DNA of 15,009 bases, taken from the NCBI GenBank assembly GCA_026014495.1, contig JAOZIF010000156.1, positions 1-15,009 of the forward strand, given 5' to 3'. Shown piece by piece: positions 2,232 to 14,442 of the stretch (positions are counted from its first letter, which is position 1; each line of letters begins with the position of its first letter). The DNA comes from Candidatus Bathyarchaeum sp. (GTDB taxonomy: Archaea > Thermoproteota > Bathyarchaeia > Bathyarchaeales > Bathyarchaeaceae). Position numbers and translations under genes: made by a program. Under the pieces are notes generated by a model. The model was not told where the DNA came from. It saw only the letters and a program-made list of their open reading frames with translations, and did not search any database.

Positions 2232-3086
2232 TTACTTTTTGGCGATCCAAGAGCTCATTTCAGGTTTGCACATAGATTTATACAGATAGAAAATTGGATT
2301 TGGGAACCATGTTCCTTTAAGGTGATAGTCTTTGCGTGTGAAAGAATCAAAGTTTTCCTTTTCAAATAGGTGCTCTATTTGTTCATGGTCTATATGATGA
2401 TCTTTTTTGTGCCAATAGTCAGACATAGTATAGTCAAGAGAAGGAACAGATATTCCCACAAGTTGGAAATACAAAGTATTGAGTATTGGATTAGAATGGA
2501 AATAAAGATGCTTTAACAAGTGTGGCAAAAGACGCGGTTCATTGTTCCAATAAGACGGAGATGCTTCATGATCTAAATACAGAACACCTCCTTGTTTTAA
2601 AAACACAGAAAGTTTTTGAATAGCACCCAAGTAATCGGGCAGATGATGAAGCACAGAATAACAAGTGATTAAGTCAAATTCGCCTTCATCAAAGTTCACA
2701 TCTTCGATCGGCGAGCTAATAACAGTTAATTGTTTAGAATTCACATAAGATTTGTAAGTTGTTTCCAAAAGGCTGCACATTTCCGCAGAAATATCCACCG
2801 CAGTTACGACATAGCCCATCTTTAGAAGTTTGCCAGTTAAATTCCCAGTACCTGCCCCAAAATCAAGAGCCTTTTTTACAGGGGTAACATCAGCCATGAG
2901 ATTATCTATCATCTTCAAAGTAGAGATTATTCGTTTCTGTTCATACGGATTATATACTTCTGGATGAACTAGAGTGTAATATTTTGCCTCGAAACGATGG
3001 AGCTCAACGTTTGCGGCATGAATTTTTTCTCGAAGATCGTCAGATGACAACAAATGCCCGTTATCATTCAACTTTTTTGACTTCAT
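2232..3086 (-). CDS. Class I SAM-dependent methyltransferase
   Basis: Motif I ALDFGAGTG, VTAVDIS, and FDLITCYSVLHH. Starts 28 bp after the radical SAM stop at 3115, so probably co-transcribed with it. Confidence 0.9.
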   Translation of the reverse strand: MKSKKLNDNGHLLSSDDLREKIHAANVELHRFEAKYYTLVHPEVYNPYEQKRIISTLKMIDNLMADVTPVKKALDFGAGTGNLTGKLLKMGYVVTAVDISAEMCSLLETTYKSYVNSKQLTVISSPIEDVNFDEGEFDLITCYSVLHHLPDYLGAIQKLSVFLKQGGVLYLDHEASPSYWNNEPRLLPHLLKHLYFHSNPILNTLYFQLVGISVPSLDYTMSDYWHKKDHHIDHEQIEHLFEKENFDSFTRKDYHLKGTWFPNPIFYLYKSMCKPEMSSWIAKK

Positions 3087-3114: not shown

Positions 3115-4500
3115 TCAAAGTTTAGCCTTAATCGCTCTGAGAAGATGCGCAAAAGCCGTTTTTGTTGCTGAAAAACCATACACCCCACCTTTAGAGAACA
3201 TACGCAGAATATAGGTAGGACGAATGTAAAACCTATGAAACGCATGTTCACGAAGTTCCCTCAACTCTTGCATACTCATTGTTGGAAGTTCAAAGATTGG
3301 AGTCGCTGTGTCGTACTTATCAAAATCAGTTACCCTCAGCCAACCCATCTTCTTTACAGTGTCAGCCATTGGAGTACCAGGGTAAGGCGTGGCGATATAG
3401 TAACCAACATCATCAGGGTCTAAGGCTTCAACAAGTTTAATCGTTTCCCATGCAGATTCTTTGGTTTCACCTGGAAATCCTAAAACTACACTTGCAATGG
3501 TTATCAGTCCAACTTCCTTTGCCAACTTGAAAGCATTCTTTGTTTTATTTGGAGTAAAGCCTTTTCCCATCGCATCTATGACATGCTGCGAACCTGCCTC
3601 AACACCTAACCACACGGCAATGCAACCAGCATCTTTCATTGTCTGAAGCAAATCCTTTGTAATCATGTCAACACGTGTGCCACAATCCCAAGTTACGTTA
3701 AGTTTCCGATCATGCAGTTCTCTACAGATCTCTCTAACTCTAGACTGATCAACAGTGAATGCATCATCATAAAAAGTAAACTTGTCTGCTCCGAAAGTTT
3801 TGTGAAGGTGTTCAATCTCGTCAACAACGTTCTTTGCACTACGCATCCGATATCCTCGACCAAACATCCTAACAGCAGAACAGAATTCGCACCAAAAAGT
3901 GCAACCGCGGCTTGTCATTAAAGGAAATATTACATCGCCATATTTTTTAAGCCGCTCAATAGGCCAGAGGTGATGAGCAGGAAACGGTAAACTGTCAAGG
4001 TCTTCTATGTAAGGCCTGTCAGGGTTACGAACAATTTCTTCACCCTTTCTGCAGGTTACGCCTAAAACATCATAGAAATCCTTGCCAGCCTCCAACAACT
4101 CCACAAGCTCCAGTATTGTGATTTCACCCTCTTTACGAACAACAACATCCAAATCAGGACATTCCTGCAAGGCCTTATCATCCCAAAACGTAACGTGCAC
4201 ACCCCCAAGAAGGGTTAAGCACTCTGGATGAACCTGCTTGGCAATCGTTGCTATTCGAAGCGCAGACTTGTATGTAAGAGTGGTTGAGGTCGTTCCAACT
4301 ATGTCAGGTTTACGTTTACTAAGTTCGGTTTTAAATTCATTATACGATATTTTGAGGGCTTGGCAGTCGATTACATCAACTTTGTAGTTGTTTTTTTCTA
4401 AAACAGCAGCTAAGTACCCAAGACCTAAGGGAGTGAAAGGGGGATGTTGATGGGAACCCTCAGGGTAAGGTGGATTAACAAGAGTTACATGCAGTGTCAT
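3115..4500 (-). CDS. Cobalamin-binding radical SAM protein (class B-like), copy 1, 461 aa
   Basis: N-terminal B12-binding domain (VTLVNPP..PLGLGYLAAVL, LGGVH, KEGE), SRGCTFWCEFC (CxxxCxxC), FYDD, GVEAGS, TPYPGT. Start moved from the track's TTG at 4620 to ATG at 4500, which matches the paralog's start and length and has AGGT upstream. Confidence 0.92.
   Translation of the reverse strand: MTLHVTLVNPPYPEGSHQHPPFTPLGLGYLAAVLEKNNYKVDVIDCQALKISYNEFKTELSKRKPDIVGTTSTTLTYKSALRIATIAKQVHPECLTLLGGVHVTFWDDKALQECPDLDVVVRKEGEITILELVELLEAGKDFYDVLGVTCRKGEEIVRNPDRPYIEDLDSLPFPAHHLWPIERLKKYGDVIFPLMTSRGCTFWCEFCSAVRMFGRGYRMRSAKNVVDEIEHLHKTFGADKFTFYDDAFTVDQSRVREICRELHDRKLNVTWDCGTRVDMITKDLLQTMKDAGCIAVWLGVEAGSQHVIDAMGKGFTPNKTKNAFKLAKEVGLITIASVVLGFPGETKESAWETIKLVEALDPDDVGYYIATPYPGTPMADTVKKMGWLRVTDFDKYDTATPIFELPTMSMQELRELREHAFHRFYIRPTYILRMFSKGGVYGFSATKTAFAHLLRAIKAKL
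3956..4048. repeat. 93-bp perfect direct repeat of 9859..9951 (inside the radical SAM paralogs)
   Basis: Base-by-base comparison: identical from tcaataggcc to cttcacccttt, with a mismatch at each end; offset 5903. Confidence 0.9.
4346..4412. repeat. 67-bp perfect direct repeat of 10249..10315 (inside the radical SAM paralogs)
   Basis: Identical from gatattttgagg to cagcagcta; offset 5903. Confidence 0.9.
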
Positions 4501-4565
4501 TGTTCTTACCTGAACGTATTTTGTTATACAACTACAAGAAACCCTATGCTTAATATGTTTTACAT
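4501..4565 (-). promoter_or_regulatory. Promoter/leader of radical SAM copy 1, duplicated at 10404..10467
   Basis: Minus strand AAAACATATTAAG (BRE/TATA-like) ~50 nt upstream of the ATG, and AGGTAAGAACA-ATG. Aligns to the copy 2 upstream region with 1 indel and 5 mismatches in ~65 bp. Confidence 0.7.
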
Positions 4566-4630
4566 TAAACCAATTAGAATAGCCTAGACCAAAATAACGA
4601 AGTGAACAAGAAAACGCCAATAGTTACAAC

Positions 4631-4700: not shown

Positions 4701-5345
4701 TTAGCCCATTTGTTTTGGACTAATACCGAACCATCCGAACAGTGTAGCAAATAGTGGTACTAGGATACCGTAGATTAAACGCGGTAGCAAGTTAAGGAAT
4801 AAACTATTTTCAGTTAGGTCACCAGTAAAGAGTGAATCTCCGGTCACCATACCAAAGGGCGAGATTAATTGTGTCCATAACAGGAACATTCCACCGATAA
4901 TGCCAGCTACAAGTCCAGCAACAACCATTCTACGGAAGCTAAACGAGTCTCTGTTCAGGGCTCCAGCGATGTAACCAGTAAGCATTGCACATACAACGTA
5001 TCCAAGGTTGCTTATTTCTCCAACCATCATAGTATTGGCATCAAAAGCACCCAGAGCAGCAAACGTGTCATTCACGTATAATGCATATATGCTGCCTAGC
5101 ATGAAACCTGCGCCTCCACCAGCCCATTTATTCCAAACGAGCCCAGCAAACATTGGAATACCTACAGTCAGAAGTGCCTCTCCAAGTCCATCTACTAGTA
5201 TAGAGTTTAGAATACCGCTTGAATCAACGTCGTTAATAATAGAACGAAGTTCTGTTGGAAAAATGATAATCAAGAAACCAACGATAACGGGTATAATTAT
5301 TCCCCAAAGGATGTCATTTAGTTTCCAATCTGTCCAGCTTGCCAT
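4701..5345 (-). CDS. Hypothetical integral membrane protein (~6 TM), possibly ECF transporter S-component-like
   Basis: 214 aa with about six hydrophobic, Gly-rich segments (e.g. IPMFAGLVWNKWAGGGAGFMLGSIYAL, VVAGLVAGIIGGMFLLW). Has an AAGGAGA RBS and its own TATA box. The S-component assignment is inference only. Confidence 0.75.
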   Translation of the reverse strand: MASWTDWKLNDILWGIIIPVIVGFLIIIFPTELRSIINDVDSSGILNSILVDGLGEALLTVGIPMFAGLVWNKWAGGGAGFMLGSIYALYVNDTFAALGAFDANTMMVGEISNLGYVVCAMLTGYIAGALNRDSFSFRRMVVAGLVAGIIGGMFLLWTQLISPFGMVTGDSLFTGDLTENSLFLNLLPRLIYGILVPLFATLFGWFGISPKQMG

Positions 5346-5388
5346 TTTTTGTTATCTCCTTTCTTTTTTCCCTTTTACTATCATTATA

Positions 5389-5402
5389 CATTTATATTTT
5401 GC
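5389..5402 (-). promoter_or_regulatory. Candidate BRE/TATA for the membrane protein gene
   Basis: Minus strand GCAAAATATAAAT ~45 nt upstream of ATG 5345. Confidence 0.5.
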
Positions 5403-5603
5403 GTATACGTCAATTTGCAAACAAGATTGCGCATGTTTTTCGTAAGAAATAGTGGTTTTAGCAGTTAAAAACATATCAAAGGGAAAAAAGAAGAATGAAC
5501 AAAACTCAATGCAACTGGTTATGGATTGAAAAAAGAAAAAATGTTTTAGGCAAGTTGCCAAAATCTGGTTAAAGACTAGTGCATTAAAAAAGACACAGTA
5601 ACT

Positions 5604-5649
5604 AAAAGAAAAAGAAAGAAAGTAATGTGTACGCAAGAATTGCGCACAC
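5604..5649 (-). terminator. Stem-loop plus U-tract terminator after the rnfD-like gene
   Basis: Minus strand GTGTGCGCAA-TTC-TTGCGTACAC (10-bp stem, one G-U pair; 5649..5627) followed by ATTACTTTCTTTCTTTTTCTTTT, ~20 nt after the stop. Confidence 0.7.
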
Positions 5650-5668: not shown

Positions 5669-7015
5669 CTATTGTTTCTTTATTTTGTCTCTAGCTGAAA
5701 CGATTATAGATTTCAAATCGATTCTTGCTGGACAAACGAAAGAGCAGTGACCACAGTTGTCACAGTATGCAGCGCCTAGTTTTTCGACTCTTGCCCAATT
5801 GCCTTTGTCGGCGGCTTCCTTGATCATTATAACTGGCAGATTCTTGCAGCATGTAGTCAGGCAGCGTCCACAGCGGACACAGTCAGTGGTCATTTGATCG
5901 CCAAGTTTTTTGGCTTTTGGAAGCTTTATTTTGAGTCTGGTTGTGCTTGCTTTTGGAAGTCCGACGCGATCAAGCAAAGGACACATTAAGTTCATGATCG
6001 GCAAAGCGAGAATAGATGCACCCAAGAATCCAGTGTATGTTTGAATGACTACAGTCAGTATTGCTAAGCCTGCACCGAATATGATTTGGCCTAGACGAGT
6101 CAGTGGAGTTGTTGCGGGGTCAGTTGCCATAAAGAATGCCATAAAGATCGAGCTACCCATGAATACATGGAATAATACTCTAAGCACGATGTCTCCACCG
6201 AAAATGCCTCCCATAACTGCAGAAACTATTACAGTAGTTACGAGGTAGGCTAGAGTTATTCTCCATTTAATGTATCCGCGGCAAGCTGCAAACAGAGCAA
6301 GTCCCATCAGAATCACAACAATGCTTGAAAAGCCACCTATCCAACCGTGATACTTCAGAACCAACATATTGAACAAAACGTCGGGGAGTGGATTATCATA
6401 TGAACCAAAAGTGTATGGGTTCATTGGGTCTAATGAAGGACTTCCATAGCAGGTGATTAGAGTGGTTCCAAGAGTTGTAGTTTCCATTGGATAGTAGTCG
6501 CCAAATAGACCAGCTGTTAGAGGGTTTTGCAGGTCTAGAGAAGCAAGATGGTCTGCAGGTCTTAGAGCGGACATGGATGAGAACATGGGTAAGAATAGCA
6601 ATCCGAGAATCAGCAGTTTCGCGATTGCAGCTGGGTTAACGTATTTTCTTCCAGCTAATCCTTGAATTTTCTTGAAAACAATCAAGCCGACAGCAGAAAT
6701 TAGAGCAGGATATAGGTATTGTTCAAGCCCTCCAGCCAAAACTGGTGTTGATTCAGTTGCCATTGCTGTAGGCAGTCCTAGTGAGTAGGACAGGGCAACG
6801 ATCAAACCGAAGACGGCGGCAGACATTGTGTTTTTTGGGAATCTGTAACTTAGTTTAGCGAACAGCATATCGCAGCCTACGGCGACTCCAACAGAAATTA
6901 GACAGATTACAAGTGAAGAAAGACCAAATGCGAAGTAAGATAGAAATGCGATACCGAATAACGCGGCAAGAGTATACTGCATCATCAAATCTTTTGTCAT
7001 TGGAGCTTTTACCAT
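5669..7015 (-). CDS. rnfD: RnfD/NqrB-family membrane protein fused to a C-terminal RnfC-like 2x[4Fe-4S] domain
   Basis: RnfD motifs YVNPAA, HGWIGGFSS, FMATDPATTPLTRLGQIIFG, MNLMCPLLD. C-terminal CVRCGRCLTTCC...VEKLGAAYCDNCGHCSFVCPARIDL resembles the RnfC Fe-S domain. GAGGT RBS at 7024-7028. Confidence 0.85.
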   Translation of the reverse strand: MVKAPMTKDLMMQYTLAALFGIAFLSYFAFGLSSLVICLISVGVAVGCDMLFAKLSYRFPKNTMSAAVFGLIVALSYSLGLPTAMATESTPVLAGGLEQYLYPALISAVGLIVFKKIQGLAGRKYVNPAAIAKLLILGLLFLPMFSSMSALRPADHLASLDLQNPLTAGLFGDYYPMETTTLGTTLITCYGSPSLDPMNPYTFGSYDNPLPDVLFNMLVLKYHGWIGGFSSIVVILMGLALFAACRGYIKWRITLAYLVTTVIVSAVMGGIFGGDIVLRVLFHVFMGSSIFMAFFMATDPATTPLTRLGQIIFGAGLAILTVVIQTYTGFLGASILALPIMNLMCPLLDRVGLPKASTTRLKIKLPKAKKLGDQMTTDCVRCGRCLTTCCKNLPVIMIKEAADKGNWARVEKLGAAYCDNCGHCSFVCPARIDLKSIIVSARDKIKKQ

Positions 7016-7060
7016 TTCAATTAACCTCTTATGTTTATGTGGGCTAGCTTTCTTAGTGTG

Positions 7061-7077
7061 AAAATATTTAAGCTTTT
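7061..7077 (-). promoter_or_regulatory. BRE/TATA promoter of the rnfD-like gene
   Basis: Minus strand AAAAGCTTAAATATTTT ~50 nt upstream of ATG 7015. Confidence 0.6.
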
Positions 7078-7420
7078 GGACACTCGTCAGCCAAGTGCAC
7101 TTAAGCTAAGTAAAAAATATTCACGAATTATATATAGATTTATTTTATTATTATTTACATTTCTATGCTTTGCTATTGATTTTCTTTTGAAATTGAACAG
7201 TTAAAGAAACTCTCTAGAGCAGATTTTTGGCGAAACAAAATTAACATGAAATGAAAAAAGAGCTGAGCACATTCTGCACACAAAACACTAAAAATGGGGC
7301 AACATATTTGGGACAACCAGACCACAGTAATATGTGAGCAATACAGTAAACTCTGTTTTTGAGAGGTAACGGCGTAATCATGGTTTTACAAACGTTTTTA
7401 GGTTTCCAGAAGCATGATTA

Positions 7421-7445
7421 AACTTGTTTCAAGTTGCTTTAAAAA
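7421..7445 (+). promoter_or_regulatory. Inverted repeat abutting a candidate TATA box of the plus-strand radical SAM gene
   Basis: AACTTG-TTT-CAAGTT (7421-7435) followed by TTTAAAAA (7438-7445), ~45 nt upstream of ATG 7490. Confidence 0.4.
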
Positions 7446-7489
7446 AGAAAAACAGCACCACAGTTCGTGTGTGAAAACAGTGAGTAGAA

Positions 7490-8938
7490 ATGCGTGTTTG
7501 CTTGATTAACCCACCTCGCATCCAACCCAAAGTATGGGGAGAGCCAAATGTATTTCAGCCTGTAGAAATAGCGTATGTAGCAGCGGTCTTAGAAAAACAA
7601 CACAAAGTAAGCATTATAGATACTCCAACAGAAGGCAGAAAAAATCTTGAATCAATAGATGACGCGACATACAGGGTAGGTTTAAGCACTAAAGACATAA
7701 CAGACAGAATCAAACGGTGGTCACCAGATGTTGTGGGAATCAACATGCCATACTCGGGCTGGAGCAGAACAACATTTGAGCTCGCATCTGCAATAAAAAG
7801 CGTTGACAAAGACATCATTACCGTGTTGGATGGAACACATCCCTCTGCAAGACCCGCAGATTGCCTTGCTCACCAGGGCGTAGACTTTGTTGTAATAGGT
7901 GAAAGAGAACAAACCACGCTTGAACTGGTTGGCGAATTAGAGCAAGGATTCACACAAGATTTCAAGAAAATAAAGGGAATCGCCTATCTTAAAGATGAAA
8001 AGACGGTCATTACTGCTCCAAGACCTAAAATTACAGATTTAGATTCGCTGCCATTTCCAGCAAGACACTTGCTCCCCATGAGCACATACTTTGACGCGGT
8101 AAGAGAAAACCCACTAAGAGGAGTAATACACAAACCATGGGCAGCAATGATGACTAGCAGAGGTTGCCCACACGAGTGCGTTTTTTGTTCAGTTCATCTT
8201 ACTATGGGAAGACAGTGGAGGGGCAGAAGCCCTGAAAACGTGATTGAAGAGTTAGAGCAGTTGGTTGATACTTACCACATTAAACAGATTGACTTCACTG
8301 AAAGCAATATTGCTCTGGACAAAAAAAGGATGGAAAATATCTGCGATTTAATCGTGGAACATGGAATAGATATTGAATGGTATACTCCAGACGGTTTGAG
8401 GGCGGATACTGTTGATGAAAACCTTTTGAGAAAAATGAAGCGTTCTGGTTGTAAGAAGATACGTATTGCTCCCGAGTCGGGCGTTCAGCGTGTTGTGAAT
8501 GAGGTTATTAAAAAAAATCAGGATTTAAAAGATGTGGAGAACGCTCTGATTTGGTCCAAAAAAGTGGGAATCAAAGTAGGATGCTTTTTTGTAATGGGAT
8601 TTGTAGGTGAAACAAAAGAAGACATTAAACAGACCATAGATTACGCGTATAAACTAAGAAAGTTAGGAGCAGATATTTTTCACTTTAGCATAGCCACCCC
8701 ATTATACGGAACAGAACTGTATGAGCAGGCTAAAAGTGGCGGTTTCTTAATGGACAATTTCAATGATGAAGCATTAGCTGCAGCTGAGCCTTTAATTGAA
8801 ACTCCAGAGTTCACAGCAGCCGAGTTGCGCGAATTATGCATACAAGCCAACATAGTAAATCAGAAGATTACTCCCGATAAAATTGTGAAAGCCATTTTGG
8901 ACCCAAAAAAAGCAATCAAAATGCTATGGAAAAGATAG
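7490..8938 (+). CDS. Cobalamin-binding-domain radical SAM protein (divergent third member), 482 aa
   Basis: VCLINPP, AYVAAVL, DLDSLPFPARHLL, SRGCPHECVFC (CxxxCxxC), IAPESG, ATPLYGT. Confidence 0.9.
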   Translation: MRVCLINPPRIQPKVWGEPNVFQPVEIAYVAAVLEKQHKVSIIDTPTEGRKNLESIDDATYRVGLSTKDITDRIKRWSPDVVGINMPYSGWSRTTFELASAIKSVDKDIITVLDGTHPSARPADCLAHQGVDFVVIGEREQTTLELVGELEQGFTQDFKKIKGIAYLKDEKTVITAPRPKITDLDSLPFPARHLLPMSTYFDAVRENPLRGVIHKPWAAMMTSRGCPHECVFCSVHLTMGRQWRGRSPENVIEELEQLVDTYHIKQIDFTESNIALDKKRMENICDLIVEHGIDIEWYTPDGLRADTVDENLLRKMKRSGCKKIRIAPESGVQRVVNEVIKKNQDLKDVENALIWSKKVGIKVGCFFVMGFVGETKEDIKQTIDYAYKLRKLGADIFHFSIATPLYGTELYEQAKSGGFLMDNFNDEALAAAEPLIETPEFTAAELRELCIQANIVNQKITPDKIVKAILDPKKAIKMLWKR

Positions 8939-9017: not shown

Positions 9018-10403
9018 TTAGAATTTGGCTTTAATTGCTCTGAGGAGATGTGCTAAAGCTGTTTTTGTTGCAGAAAATCCATAGACTCCGCCTTTAGAGA
9101 ACATACGTAGAATATAGGTAGGGCGAATGTAAAATCTGTGAAACGCTTTTTCTCGGATTTCTCTTAACTCTTGCATGCTCAGCGTTGGTAACTCAAAGAT
9201 TGGAGTCGCTGTGTCGTATCTGTCAAAGTCAGTTACTTTTAGCCAGTTATTTTTTTTGACCAATTCGTACATGGGAGTTCCGGGGTAAGGTGTGGCAATG
9301 TAAAAGCCTACATCATCAGGATTTAGTTTTTCTACAAACTTTATTGTTTCCCATGCGGTTTCCTTAGTTTCACCAGGAGTACCAAGGATTGTGCCAGCAA
9401 CAACCATTAGTCCCACTTCTTTTGTCCAATTAAAGGCCCTCATAACTTGTTCAAGGGAGAAGCCTTTTTCCATATTGTCTATGACCTTCTGGGAGCCGGA
9501 CTCAACTCCATACCATACAGCATAGCAGCCCGCCTTCTTCATTAATATGAGCAACTCTTTTGTAACCATGTCTACACGGGTTTCGCAGTCCCATTTTATT
9601 TTCAGTTTTCGACGGATTATTTCTTCGCAGAGTTCTGCAGTTCTGGGCTGATTGACAGTAAAACTATCATCATAAAAAGTAAACATGTCTGACCCGAAAG
9701 TTTTATGAAGATACTCAATTTCGTCCACAACATTTTTTGGGCTACGCATCCGATATCTTCGACCAAACATCCTAACTGCCGAGCAGAATTCACACCAGAA
9801 TGTGCAGCCGCGGCTTGTCATTACTGGAAAGATTACATCGCCGTATTTTTTGAGGTTTTCAATAGGCCAGAGGTGATGAGCAGGAAACGGTAAACTGTCA
9901 AGGTCTTCTATGTAAGGCCTGTCAGGGTTACGAACAATTTCTTCACCCTTTTTGCAGGTTATGCCTAAAACATCATAGAAGTCCTTGCCTGCTTCTAAGC
10001 GTTCTACAAGTTCCAGCATTGTGTTTTCGCCTTCTTTTCTTACAATAACATCCAAGTCTGGGGATTCTTGCAAGGCTTTGTCATCCCAGAAGGTGGCGTG
10101 GACGCCTCCAAGAATTGTTAGGCATTTGGGGTGAAGTTGTTTGGCGATTTTTGCTGCTCGGAGTGCAGATTTGTATGTGAGTGTAGTTGAGGTCATTCCT
10201 ACTATGTCGGGTTTGCGTTTGCTGAGTTCAGCTTTTAATTCGGCATGTGATATTTTGAGGGCTTGGCAGTCGATTACATCAACTTTGTAGTTGTTTTTTT
10301 CTAAAACAGCAGCTAGGTACCCAAGACCTAGTGGGGTGAATGGAGGGTGGTGATGTGCGCCCTCGGGGTAAGGTGGATTTACAAGAGTTACATTCAGGGT
10401 CAT
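9018..10403 (-). CDS. Cobalamin-binding radical SAM protein (class B-like), copy 2, 461 aa
   Basis: Same motifs as copy 1 (PLGLGYLAAVL, SRGCTFWCEFC, FYDD, GVESGS, TPYPGT). Gapless alignment to 3115..4500 with 87 aa differences by hand count. Confidence 0.92.
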   Translation of the reverse strand: MTLNVTLVNPPYPEGAHHHPPFTPLGLGYLAAVLEKNNYKVDVIDCQALKISHAELKAELSKRKPDIVGMTSTTLTYKSALRAAKIAKQLHPKCLTILGGVHATFWDDKALQESPDLDVIVRKEGENTMLELVERLEAGKDFYDVLGITCKKGEEIVRNPDRPYIEDLDSLPFPAHHLWPIENLKKYGDVIFPVMTSRGCTFWCEFCSAVRMFGRRYRMRSPKNVVDEIEYLHKTFGSDMFTFYDDSFTVNQPRTAELCEEIIRRKLKIKWDCETRVDMVTKELLILMKKAGCYAVWYGVESGSQKVIDNMEKGFSLEQVMRAFNWTKEVGLMVVAGTILGTPGETKETAWETIKFVEKLNPDDVGFYIATPYPGTPMYELVKKNNWLKVTDFDRYDTATPIFELPTLSMQELREIREKAFHRFYIRPTYILRMFSKGGVYGFSATKTALAHLLRAIKAKF

Positions 10404-10503: not shown

Positions 10504-11490
10504 CTAAAATGGGAAAAAGTAGGCAGTAGTTAACACTAGCACAGGCACTACAAGAAGTACACCTAAAATTATTGCCACGTTTCTGATTTTTAATGAACGA
10601 AGTATTTTGTTTGCATCCAACTCTTCGAGAGGGTCACCAACGGCGTATTGTCCGGGTTTTTCTAATTGTACACGGAGCGCTCCAGCAATTGATGCCATCT
10701 GCCATCCATGATTTGTGCTTGGAATTTTAGCTTGGTCTCGACGTGCAATTGTCCACGCGCTCTTATAGTCGTCGCCTGTGATTGCTGCGGCTAAAATTAG
10801 TAGAAGTGTTGTTAATCTAGCGGGGATATAGTTAACTATAGTGTCAAAGACTGCAGAGAACCATCCTATGTGAAGGTGTTCAGGGTCTTTAAATCCAACC
10901 ATTCCGTCGAGTGTGTTAACGGCTCGGAAGGCGACGGCGCCTGGAACACCAAAAAAGCCGTAATAAAAGATTGGAGATAACCTAAAATCTGTCAGGTTTT
11001 CGGCTAACGATTCTATAACAGAAGAAACTATTTGGGGTCCAGTTAATTCTTTGTTGTCTCTTCGGGAGAAGTGAGCATATTTTCGTGCTTCAGTCAGGTC
11101 TCCTGATTCTATGGCTTTGGCTGCGGCTTTGCCCCAATCTGTTTCAAGTTTCATGCAAATGGTTAGTTTGAGGATAATAGCAGCGACAATTATGTAAACC
11201 AGCACGCCTAGGTAAGTGTAGATGACTTTTAGCCCAAAATATACAGGTATGGTAAAGGTTAGAATGACTGTCAGAGCTAAAATGATGCCATTTATTTTTT
11301 CTATTTTTGGATTCTTGTTTTTTAAACGGCGCTCCAGTATTTGAGTGAAGGTTCCCATCCAAACAGTTGGATGTAATCTGAATTGGAGTCTGTGCGGATA
11401 GTTAGGAGAAGGGTCACCGAAAATCAGGTCTAACACTAAAGCTAAAACGAGAACAATGACCGCAATCAACAGACTTGTTATTGTTATCAT
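10504..11490 (-). CDS. cbiB: Adenosylcobinamide-phosphate synthase CbiB/CobD
   Basis: LALVLDLIFGDP..HPTVWMG, ESLAENLTD..SPIFY, AFRAVNTLDGMVGF, NYIPARLT, STNHGWQMASIAGALRVQLEKPGQY; hydrophobic membrane protein. Confidence 0.93.
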   Translation of the reverse strand: MITITSLLIAVIVLVLALVLDLIFGDPSPNYPHRLQFRLHPTVWMGTFTQILERRLKNKNPKIEKINGIILALTVILTFTIPVYFGLKVIYTYLGVLVYIIVAAIILKLTICMKLETDWGKAAAKAIESGDLTEARKYAHFSRRDNKELTGPQIVSSVIESLAENLTDFRLSPIFYYGFFGVPGAVAFRAVNTLDGMVGFKDPEHLHIGWFSAVFDTIVNYIPARLTTLLLILAAAITGDDYKSAWTIARRDQAKIPSTNHGWQMASIAGALRVQLEKPGQYAVGDPLEELDANKILRSLKIRNVAIILGVLLVVPVLVLTTAYFFPF

Positions 11491-13350: not shown

Positions 13351-14442
13351 TTAGTTACCTTTCTTGGAAGGGTCACCTTTTGGCTCATACAGACATGCGT
13401 TGTCAGGTCCAAAATAGGAGCCAGTAAGACCGTATGCTCGGGTTCTGCAGCCACCACATATTTTTCGATGCTCACAAATTCCACATTTGCCTTGCAAGTT
13501 GTCTGGGTTTTGTAGTTTTTTGTAAAATTCTGAGTTTTGCATTTTATCCCAGAGTTCTTTTAGGCTGTTTTCTTTGATGTTTCCAATCTTCAAGTCCTCA
13601 GAATAAAAGCAGGGGATTACGTCTCCGTTCTCTAGAACGCTCAGGTATCCTCCGAACACGAAGTATATGCATTTGGCGGTGTGTGTTTTGTTATACCATT
13701 CACAGAAGCCTTCGGGGTCACGCTCTTTGACGATTCTAATGTAGTGTGGACAATGGATGTTAAAATCAAAATCAACCTTGTATTGCTTTTTAGACAAATC
13801 ATATAGGTGATTCAAAAACACTTCATACTCTTGAGGCGTTGGCTCCAAGTCTAAATGTTGTTTTGCTCTGCCACTTGGAACCAAGTGATTAAACCAAACA
13901 AATTTTGCGCCATATTTTTCTGCCAAACCAACTATGTGATCAGCTTCATCAAGGTTGACTTTAGTTATAGCCATAGATAAGCCGTTTAAGATTCCAGCCT
14001 TTGACAGTTTCTGAATCGCCGCCAAGGCTGCTTTGTATGAACCTTGTCCTCGTAGTGCATCGTTTGCTTTTTCTGAGCCGTCTATGCTGATGGATGTGTA
14101 CACATTGTACTTAACTAGGTTGTCAAGGATTTCTCCATCCACATAATAGCCATTAGTGAGTAAGCACACCTCAAGCCCCAAATCTTTTGCATGTGCAATA
14201 AGCGTGAAAACATCTTTACGTAAAAGCGGTTCTCCTCCCTTTAACCCAAACCACTGGGAACCAAACTCGTAGATTTGGTCAACAAGACGCAATCCCCATT
14301 CTGTGTCTAGTTCGTCAGGAGACTTTGTCATGTTTGCATCTACATTACAGTATACACAACTATAATTACAAGCGCCAGTAGCTCTCCAAGAAGTGATCAT
14401 TAAAGGGCCTTCAAGTTTCTTTGGGGGACCAGGACATGCCAT
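13351..14442 (-). CDS. Radical SAM/SPASM domain protein (AhbC/AhbD/NirJ/PqqE-like)
   Basis: CNYSCVYC, KGGEPLLR, LLTNG, SISIDG. SPASM cysteines: KC..GYLSVLENGDVIPC and GKCGICEHRKICGGCRTRAY...DNAC. Confidence 0.88.
   Translation of the reverse strand: MACPGPPKKLEGPLMITSWRATGACNYSCVYCNVDANMTKSPDELDTEWGLRLVDQIYEFGSQWFGLKGGEPLLRKDVFTLIAHAKDLGLEVCLLTNGYYVDGEILDNLVKYNVYTSISIDGSEKANDALRGQGSYKAALAAIQKLSKAGILNGLSMAITKVNLDEADHIVGLAEKYGAKFVWFNHLVPSGRAKQHLDLEPTPQEYEVFLNHLYDLSKKQYKVDFDFNIHCPHYIRIVKERDPEGFCEWYNKTHTAKCIYFVFGGYLSVLENGDVIPCFYSEDLKIGNIKENSLKELWDKMQNSEFYKKLQNPDNLQGKCGICEHRKICGGCRTRAYGLTGSYFGPDNACLYEPKGDPSKKGN

Follow-up and report, generated by a model that had tools for sequence, protein, structure and literature searches.

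The stretch of DNA analysed here (the window, 15,009 nucleotides (nt) of contig JAOZIF010000156.1 from Candidatus Bathyarchaeum sp., assembly GCA_026014495.1) carries on its minus strand, at positions 5669–7015, a gene in which a membrane protein of the RnfD type is joined to the iron–sulphur (Fe-S) domain of a second Rnf subunit, RnfC. On balance, we favour the view that its product, P0001, is a membrane electron-transfer module that is independent of Rnf, is built from the contact between RnfD and RnfC, would pass electrons from Fe-S clusters to a flavin, and belongs to a family with exchangeable inputs. RnfD and NqrB are usually taken to be inseparable from the six-subunit Rnf and Nqr ion pumps. 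The P0001 family would instead present the RnfD core as a portable membrane module with swappable inputs, working without covalent flavin or the other pump subunits. In Bathyarchaeia, archaea that are abundant in sediments and have a poorly understood energy metabolism, recognising the family guards against misreading RnfD matches as partial Rnf complexes; a survey of Bathyarchaeota, for example, tallied RnfD in 3 of 19 metagenome-assembled genomes as incomplete Rnf (PMC9534799).

An RnfD-type membrane domain fused to the dicluster domain of RnfC

The gene is an intact open reading frame (ORF) of 448 residues, its coordinates including the stop codon. Residues 1–355 (5951–7015, minus strand) form an RnfD/NqrB-type membrane domain with the ten-helix fold, assigned by Pfam, Foldseek and residue mapping. 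Within it, residues 7–355 match PF03116 (NQR2_RnfD_RnfE) with E = 2.7e-42 and 145.6 bits, against a Pfam cut-off of 27.7. The scores against the more specific NCBIfam models are all under their cut-offs: 93 bits for rnfD, TIGR01946 (cut-off 207), 78 bits for RsxD (cut-off 415) and 70 bits for rnfD_Methano (cut-off 400). Among PDB sequences, the membrane part finds the RnfD chains of Azotobacter vinelandii, Clostridium tetanomorphum and Acetobacterium woodii and then NqrB, and the best Foldseek matches of an AlphaFold2 model follow the same pattern (9eri_D, 7zc6_D and 8ahx_D, then NqrB; template-modelling (TM) score 0.68–0.72 by target).

The translation continues with a Lys-rich cytoplasmic linker, KASTTRLKIKLPKAKKLG, at residues ~355–372 (5900–5950, minus strand), and ends in a dicluster domain with two [4Fe-4S] motifs at residues 373–448 (5672–5899, minus strand), identified by TIGR01945 and by the RnfC chains of the PDB. 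Residues 363–447 match positions 349–433 of the 435 in the NCBIfam rnfC model TIGR01945 (E = 3.1e-13), and the C-terminal 85 residues match rnfC_Methano with E = 2.2e-12. The best model from outside Rnf is CdhA at 1.8e-6, and generic ferredoxin-type models (NapF, NuoI, polyferredoxins) score 3e-4 or worse. Several 4Fe-4S dicluster models of Pfam match weakly at residues ~375–435. In the PDB the RnfC chains come first for this part of the protein, 9eri_C at 4e-9 and 7zc6_C at 1e-7. The other domains of RnfC, that is, the N-terminal barrel-sandwich, the Complex1_51K domain that binds reduced nicotinamide adenine dinucleotide (NADH) and flavin mononucleotide (FMN), and SLBB, are not found in P0001, and there is no Pfam match to the NAD-binding domain PF00175, the C-terminus being the Fer4 dicluster.

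The cysteine motifs of the dicluster read C379xxC382xxC385xxxC389(C390) and C418xxC421xxC424xxxC428-P. In an alignment of 36 homologues the eight ligand cysteines and P429 are invariant and C390 is variable; the TDPATTP motif of the membrane domain is invariant too, as are ~120 further columns besides the eight cysteines, in sequences down to 63% identity. Judged from this alignment, the fusion gene is under purifying selection. The first-pass annotation had described P0001 as an RnfD with RnfD/NqrB motifs, a Lys-rich linker and a C-terminal domain resembling the C-terminus of RnfC, and each part of this description is borne out by the intact ORF, the Pfam match, the eight invariant cysteines and the comparison of 3.1e-13 for rnfC with 1.8e-6 for the best non-Rnf model. 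A derivation of the dicluster domain from RnfC is supported by these best scores together with sister lineages, set out below, in which a split RnfD stands beside a bona fide RnfC.

Residues kept and lost in the membrane domain

Residues were mapped through HMMER alignments to C. tetanomorphum RnfD (7zc6_D) and Vibrio cholerae NqrB (7xk3_B), together with the family alignment. Asn124 and Asp248 of the former correspond to N127 and D299 of P0001 and Asp397 of the latter to D349, and all three are invariant across the family, so that the riboflavin-side residues are kept. In the C. tetanomorphum complex, Asn124 and Asp248 make up a postulated Na+ site, and Asp248 also binds riboflavin (PMC9588780). 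Ion coupling through the conserved Asn and Asp residues may thus be a property of the family as well.

The opposite side of the domain has changed. Five canonical RnfDs clearly have the flavinylation motif D-x-x-[ST]-x-A-T-P-L; in 32 of 32 aligned family members unrelated sequence stands in its place, and Glu185 of the GxIGE motif, which lies beside the covalent FMN, has become an invariant Gly (G228). Around the former FMN station a set of invariants peculiar to the family has appeared: K124, D/E155-H156, C189, H223, W225, K250 and R279, which, with the exception of C189, are also found in the sister group P0137/P0142. With the residues of the riboflavin site kept, the FMN motif and the GxIGE Glu lost and these new invariants gained, the domain looks to have retained its cytoplasmic, riboflavin-binding half and remodelled its outer half. 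A proposed equivalence between the invariant S334 and the FMN-contacting Ser284 of C. tetanomorphum RnfD was dropped, as the ungapped alignment sets Ser284 opposite I335.

The remaining Rnf subunits are missing

The assembly from which the window comes has a size of 2.19 Mb in 196 contigs and is 93% complete. PF03116 is found in it at one locus only. Searches of it for PF02508 (RnfA/E), FMN_bind (RnfG), ApbE and a full RnfC gave no match, and none to RnfB came out over the cut-off. The absence of other rnf genes, first observed for the window, therefore extends to the rest of the assembled genome. RnfA/E turned up in none of the 25 genomes searched in the genus (g1), single-contig ones included, nor in any of the 21 of the second carrier genus, g20; ApbE was found in 0 of the 25. 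These counts mean that incompleteness of the assembly is no explanation for the missing Rnf.

Distribution of the family and its exchangeable inputs

More than 100 full-length homologues share 61–84% identity with P0001; their database names are RnfD only, and they are assigned to Bathyarchaeota or Thermoproteota. About one third of the homologues among the matches listed are longer, at ~720 residues, with extra FrhB_N and FrhB_C domains. When genomes of the class were sampled, 35 of 301 carried the fusion gene, all of them in two families of one order. Within the genus of the window it is present in 21 of 24 other genomes, where short forms and long, FrhB-bearing forms are mixed.

Relatives of the family show other arrangements. 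In g20, an RnfD-like gene without the dicluster overlaps the start of, and is translationally coupled to, a gene for a 430-residue RnfC (L033, L035) that contains RnfC_N, Complex1_51K, SLBB and two [4Fe-4S] motifs and scores 411 bits against TIGR01945 (cut-off 246). In the sister group, the RnfD-Fer4 gene P0137 is followed by an FMN_bind (RnfG-like) gene, and in P0142/P0390 the RnfD-Fer4 part is continued into a molybdopterin oxidoreductase, with NuoE-, NuoF- and NuoG-N-like genes next to it. The latter fusion has 1131 residues (L044 7001–13556), and the module looks like a formate/NADH dehydrogenase-type enzyme on an RnfD-like membrane anchor. A quick maximum-likelihood tree of RnfD cores places the Bathyarchaeial family in one clade (Shimodaira–Hasegawa-like approximate likelihood ratio support 95) on a long branch from the canonical RnfDs. 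The tree is unrooted and the architectures are intermixed in it; the ancestral architecture is not resolved. The series of split and fused forms across the relatives is good evidence for an RnfC origin of the dicluster domain, and it also shows the constant unit to be the RnfD core with its Fe-S 'plug', to which differing electron-input modules are attached.

The donor had been predicted to differ from that of Rnf, and the variants bearing FrhB, RnfC or molybdopterin domains agree with this. The FrhB domain of the long forms is nearest to the genuine F420-dependent proteins FrhB, Fsr and FpoF. Only 1 of the genus's 25 genomes yielded CofD, and the genome of the window did not, for which reason we have not adopted F420 as the donor of these forms. 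An identity of the FrhB domain with the tetrapyrrole reductases BciB/HCAR was considered and rejected (5e-8 for HCAR against 2.5e-38).

Two of the fusion genes, in two genomes of the genus, are broken by stop codons and were matched in pieces (G009:C3:108364–109697 and G004:C11:54372–55706; TAG in the one, TAA and TGA in the other), through either decay in the lineage or assembly errors. The sole homologue with an Asgard name, P0067, lies on a 3.9-kb contig labelled Candidatus Hodarchaeota and nests in a Bathyarchaeial genus-level clade of the quick tree; a mis-binned contig seems more likely here than a real occurrence in Asgard archaea.

A conserved membrane partner resembling S-components

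The gene downstream of the fusion gene (4701–5345, minus strand) codes for P0121, a membrane protein of 214 residues and six helices. A gene of this kind lies 3' of the fusion gene on the same strand at 19 of the 23 loci examined, at a distance of 147–320 nt and with a product of 205–260 residues. The four exceptions are two extra copies (both in G074), one distant relative with an FMN_bind neighbour, and L024, where the gene lies ~10 kb away. The two genes stay paired even at loci whose fusion proteins have diverged to 42–50% identity and the partners to 29–35%, and a profile of the partner finds 37 of 301 genomes, including 35 of the 35 carriers of the fusion.

P0121 has no match to a Pfam or NCBIfam family. 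Its AlphaFold2 model (predicted local distance difference test (pLDDT) 75.6) was compared by VIA-align with 48,161 PDB representatives, and the top 13 were all substrate-binding S-components of vitamin transporters (PanT, RibU, ThiT, BioY, FolT, BtuM), with Z-scores of 8.8–14.5 over 147–177 residues (PanT 14.5, RibU 11.7, BtuM 9.2) that may be inflated, as those of helical bundles can be. The TM scores of the atlas are 0.63–0.64; a feature search has the same lead, and Foldseek is weak (E = 0.07). The conserved Cys of the kind used by BtuM is not found in P0121. EcfT and EcfA are not found in the cluster; one EcfT/CbiQ gene lies elsewhere in the genome. Complex prediction for P0001 with P0121 (alignments A1 and A3) gave a score of 0.00 against a mark of 0.32, and was used neither for nor against the pairing. 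An Rfam scan of the window at E ≤ 1, including the ~320-nt gap between the two genes, gave zero matches; hence no riboswitch hints at a ligand for the S-like protein.

Compared with the solitary S-components of the energy-coupling factor (ECF) type, such as BtuM, RibU, BioY and ThiT, P0121 is alike in its six-helix fold and its size of ~200 residues, and unlike them in having no sequence-family match and no adjacent ECF T or A genes; a redox neighbour of the RnfD type has not been described for S-components. Paralogues of the protein occur in other settings. One in the same genome (G000:C186; L041 6456–7052, minus strand) lies beside an archaeal CobT (L041 7210–8301; TIGR00303, 413 bits), and in G146 (L042) two lie near hemL-hemC-cobA-hemD and an SBF transporter. 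The adjacency to CobT and to hemL-hemC-cobA-hemD suggests that the compound handled by the S-like family is related to cobamides or tetrapyrroles.

The radical-SAM and cobamide neighbourhood

The pair is embedded in a block of genes for radical S-adenosylmethionine (SAM) enzymes. In family f9 the core is a triad of a divergent AhbD/NirJ-like SPASM gene, the fusion gene and the S-like gene, the first of these being a paralogue of a gene of the window, a radical SAM/SPASM gene at 13351–14442 (minus strand) that is AhbD/NirJ-like with a score below the cut-off. In the genus of the window the divergent neighbour is a B12-binding radical SAM gene, and the block adds two to four further genes of that kind, a methyltransferase, CbiB, an amidohydrolase and the SPASM enzyme.

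In the window itself, the divergent gene (7490–8938, plus strand; class B, PF02310 with PF04055) has the same position in L009, L011 and L039. Two more B12-binding radical SAM genes, at 3115–4620 and 9018–10403 on the minus strand, are close paralogues with identical top NCBIfam matches; for the former the best NCBIfam match is BchE/HpnJ, below the cut-off, and translation probably begins at the ATG at 4500. A gene of the CobD/CbiB (adenosylcobinamide-phosphate synthase) family follows at 10504–11490 (minus strand; PF03186, E = 1.6e-76) and is syntenic in L009, L010, L039 and L040, and a SAM-dependent methyltransferase with a weak BchM/CpaM score at 2232–3086 (minus strand) is syntenic in L009, L011 and L039. 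The cluster has a tetrapyrrole/cobamide flavour, in that AhbD/NirJ, BchE/HpnJ and BchM/CpaM are the best scores, all below curated cut-offs, alongside CbiB. The pairing with the S-like protein and these genes points to a membrane electron transfer linked with cofactor or radical-enzyme chemistry.

A proposed route for electrons and the alternatives to it

Structures of Rnf show the cytoplasmic C-terminal arm of RnfD resting on RnfC, with the riboflavin 11.7 Å from [4Fe-4S]RnfC-2 (PMC9588780, 7zc6). The fusion joins precisely those elements of RnfD and RnfC that are in contact there. In the route that we propose, a cytoplasmic donor would reduce the two [4Fe-4S] clusters of the RnfC-type domain, with the Lys-rich linker tethering this domain to the RnfD-type domain's cytoplasmic C-terminus. 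A non-covalent flavin, bound at the riboflavin site (N127, D299) in the membrane domain's cytoplasmic half, would then take single electrons from the clusters and pass them on to an acceptor that lies within the membrane or at its surface. What was the outer, covalent-FMN station would have been remodelled into a family-specific pocket of H156, C189, H223, W225 and G228, and RnfG, RnfA/E, RnfB and ApbE would play no part. Since the dicluster of the window is bare, its electrons presumably come from a soluble ferredoxin or from an enzyme that docks to it; in relatives, the input would be a separate full RnfC (using NADH), a fused FrhB-like flavin/Fe-S domain or a fused molybdopterin dehydrogenase. 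Most likely the module would work with the downstream S-component-like protein and serve the surrounding radical-SAM/cobamide pathway. As acceptor we would rank first a cofactor or substrate shared with the S-like partner, second a lipophilic carrier and third a reverse, gradient-driven supply of electrons. The first place is given because the pairing is conserved, because the context is one of cobamide genes and because an RnfG-like gene occupies the same position in the sister group.

Two elements of the first-pass annotation do not survive. It had seen in P0001 a 'mini-Rnf', and since P0001 has no covalent-FMN site and is accompanied neither by RnfG nor by the half of the electron loop that belongs to RnfA/E, nothing suggests ferredoxin:NAD+ chemistry of the Rnf type or pumping. 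It had also seen a single-polypeptide, stand-alone protein, to which the conserved pairing with an S-like membrane protein and the conserved radical-SAM/cobamide cluster are opposed. What stands of it is a derivation from RnfC, independence from Rnf and modular donors.

Several points weigh against the proposed route. Flavin and Fe-S binding across the family are predictions from motifs. The AlphaFold2 model of P0001 is weak, with a mean pLDDT of 62.6; the linker, the Fer4 domain and some of the outer loop stay under 50, so that neither the geometry from Fe-S cluster to flavin nor a clustering of H156, C189 and H223 can be read from it. The fusion and S-like genes of the window are ~320 nt apart with a terminator-like hairpin between them and may therefore not be co-transcribed. 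Carrier genomes are found only in two related families, which means that the counts of co-occurrence are not independent. MqnA and MqnD of the futalosine pathway were not found, and RnfD does not have the helices that form the quinone site in NqrB (PMC12174285).

The alternative that survives best, though we consider it unlikely, is reductive cofactor handling: the S-like partner would hold a corrinoid (or flavin) at the membrane and RnfD-Fer4 would reduce it, for example by Co(III)/Co(II) reduction in cobamide salvage, with the product feeding the B12-dependent radical SAM enzymes encoded nearby. Vitamin-binding S-components are what the S-like protein matches in fold, among them RibU (Z 11.7) and BtuM, a cobalamin transporter (Z 9.2), values subject to the inflation mentioned above for helical bundles; CbiB and three to five B12-radical-SAM genes lie in the cluster, and S-like paralogues lie beside CobT in the same genome and hemL-hemC-cobA-hemD in G146. 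In the sister group an FMN_bind (RnfG-like) gene comes after RnfD-Fer4, and the S-like protein thus holds RnfG's place in the gene order. A protein of the RnfC family, PduS, was characterised as a corrin reductase (PMC2982820); this role, however, has been disputed (PMC11275729). Nor does the S-like family have a conserved Cys of the BtuM type, and no cobalamin or FMN riboswitch was found in the window (Rfam, E ≤ 1). A more specific version, which we hold with still more reserve, is that RnfD-Fer4 and the S-like protein make up a two-subunit membrane redox machine in which an S-component fold has replaced RnfG as the outer holder of a cofactor or substrate, corrinoid or flavin. If so, electrons would run from Fe-S through riboflavin and the His/His/Cys/Trp pocket to a molecule at the membrane surface, and the machine might serve to capture or activate cobamides reductively, to the benefit of the many B12-radical-SAM enzymes of these archaea.

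It is somewhat less probable that P0001 is an oxidoreductase between its donor and a membrane carrier, a small respiratory entry point in which riboflavin would reduce a lipophilic carrier, possibly with ion coupling through the Asn/Asp residues. The riboflavin of NqrB reduces quinone directly in NQR, an NADH:quinone oxidoreductase that translocates Na+ (PMC12174285), N127, D299 and D349 are kept, relatives have inputs of the dehydrogenase type, and an Fpo/Nuo-like membrane complex in the genome also implies some membrane carrier. Against this, MqnA/D were not found, the quinone pocket of NqrB is formed by N-terminal helices that are absent from RnfD, the N-terminus of P0001 being short, and it would be left unexplained why the gene is so tightly linked to those for the S-like protein and the radical SAM enzymes.

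Little more can be said for a supply of reductant, in which the protein would run uphill on the membrane potential, loading its Fe-S domain with low-potential electrons that would then reduce the cobalamin or the radical SAM clusters of the neighbouring enzymes, in the way that nitrogenase is supplied by Rnf, and we regard this as very unlikely. Radical SAM genes are indeed the most constant neighbours, the SPASM gene of f9 shares a divergent promoter region with the fusion gene, the postulated ion-site residues are conserved, and a reverse operation of Rnf is known (PMC12174285). However, there is no membrane-side source of electrons, the coupled loop is without its other half, RnfA/E/G, and the NADH- or FrhB-type input variants suggest that electrons enter from the cytoplasm.

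We give very little credence to a solute channel or transporter gated by an Fe-S redox sensor. There are weaker fold matches of the membrane domain to urea transporters and Amt/Rh, a kinship noted in PMC9588780; RnfD/NqrB is far closer by Foldseek (E of 1e-9 against 1e-2), the flavin-site Asp and Asn are conserved, and relatives pair the domain with full dehydrogenase modules. Finally, that P0001 is subunit D of an ordinary Rnf encoded elsewhere in the genome, as its database name ('RnfABCDGE type electron transport complex subunit D') would have it and as genes unassembled in a 93% complete genome might allow, is effectively excluded within the searches made by the counts for RnfA/E (0/25 and 0/21) and ApbE (0/25), by the failure to find RnfB, RnfG or a full RnfC in the genome, and by the score of 93 bits against an rnfD cut-off of 207 with the FMN motif lost.

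Relation to known systems

With the RnfD–RnfC pair of Rnf itself (C. tetanomorphum 7ZC6, A. woodii 9ERI, A. vinelandii 8AHX) the proposed Fe-S-to-flavin module has in common the RnfD fold and the TDPxTxP, VNPA and PLxD motifs. That pair carries electrons between the riboflavin of RnfD and the [4Fe-4S] clusters of RnfC, and the dicluster of P0001 aligns with RnfC residues ~350–433. Unlike in Rnf, both parts are in one polypeptide, without the NADH/FMN, SLBB and barrel domains of RnfC, and the covalent-FMN Thr motif and the GxIGE Glu are lost.

The nearest described kind is that of the bacterial NQR/RNF-like two-subunit systems, in which an NqrB/RnfD-like domain with a C-terminal PF00175 domain is encoded in a flavinylation cluster with ApbE and FMN-bind (Meheust et al. 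2021, PMC8238504; 2024 preprint, PMC10979944); a one-way transmembrane electron flow has been proposed for them, and their RnfD-like Thr is not conserved (PMC8238504, PMC10979944). The P0001 family resembles them in its N-terminal PF03116 domain, its C-terminal cytosolic input domain, its non-conserved flavinylation Thr and the presence of one of the two electron paths of Rnf/Nqr, with a flow that is probably unidirectional. It differs in that the input is an RnfC-type dicluster, with or without FrhB, rather than PF00175, in its S-component-like partner and in its archaeal host (Bathyarchaeia, not Actinobacteria or the Candidate Phyla Radiation). It also has no ApbE or FMN-binding gene in the window or the genome, an FMN_bind neighbour being found only in the distant relative P0137.

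PduS/MNdh of bacterial microcompartments provide a third comparison, as an Fe-S module of the RnfC family without the Rnf membrane core, linked to B12-dependent enzymes and sending electrons via two [4Fe-4S] clusters to a partner outside Rnf. Unlike PduS, which is soluble and keeps the NADH/FMN domain, P0001 keeps the dicluster only and has it fused to a membrane protein. We found no description of the RnfD-Fer4 fusion family in the literature.

Intergenic signals and further observations

The fusion gene had been credited with its own promoter and terminator, and candidates for both can be read from the flanking DNA. The divergent intergenic region of 474 nt between it and the B12-radical-SAM gene (7016–7489) contains, upstream of the ATG of the fusion gene, a putative TATA-like A/T-rich box, TTAAATAT (7064–7071), and a Shine–Dalgarno-like AGAGGT site (7024–7029). 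On the other side, 20 nt past the stop codon, a terminator-like hairpin of 10 pairs with a loop of 3, followed by a T-rich tract, is found at 5627–5649 (minus strand). Between the fusion and S-like genes lies an ORF of 94 residues (5352–5636, minus strand) of low complexity, rich in Phe and Ser and with no family match, which is probably not a gene.

A PQQ_2 beta-propeller protein of 850–920 residues with a signal or anchor, probably a surface protein, is encoded at 2–1876 of the window (minus strand) and recurs near the pair in L025, L031, L033, L036, L039 and L011. Elsewhere in the genome, G000:C71 (L022 843–7644) carries an Fpo/Nuo-like cluster with three antiporter subunits of the NuoL/M/N type, followed by an FpoF/FrhB-like protein that has Fer4 at its N-terminus and CBS domains at its C-terminus.

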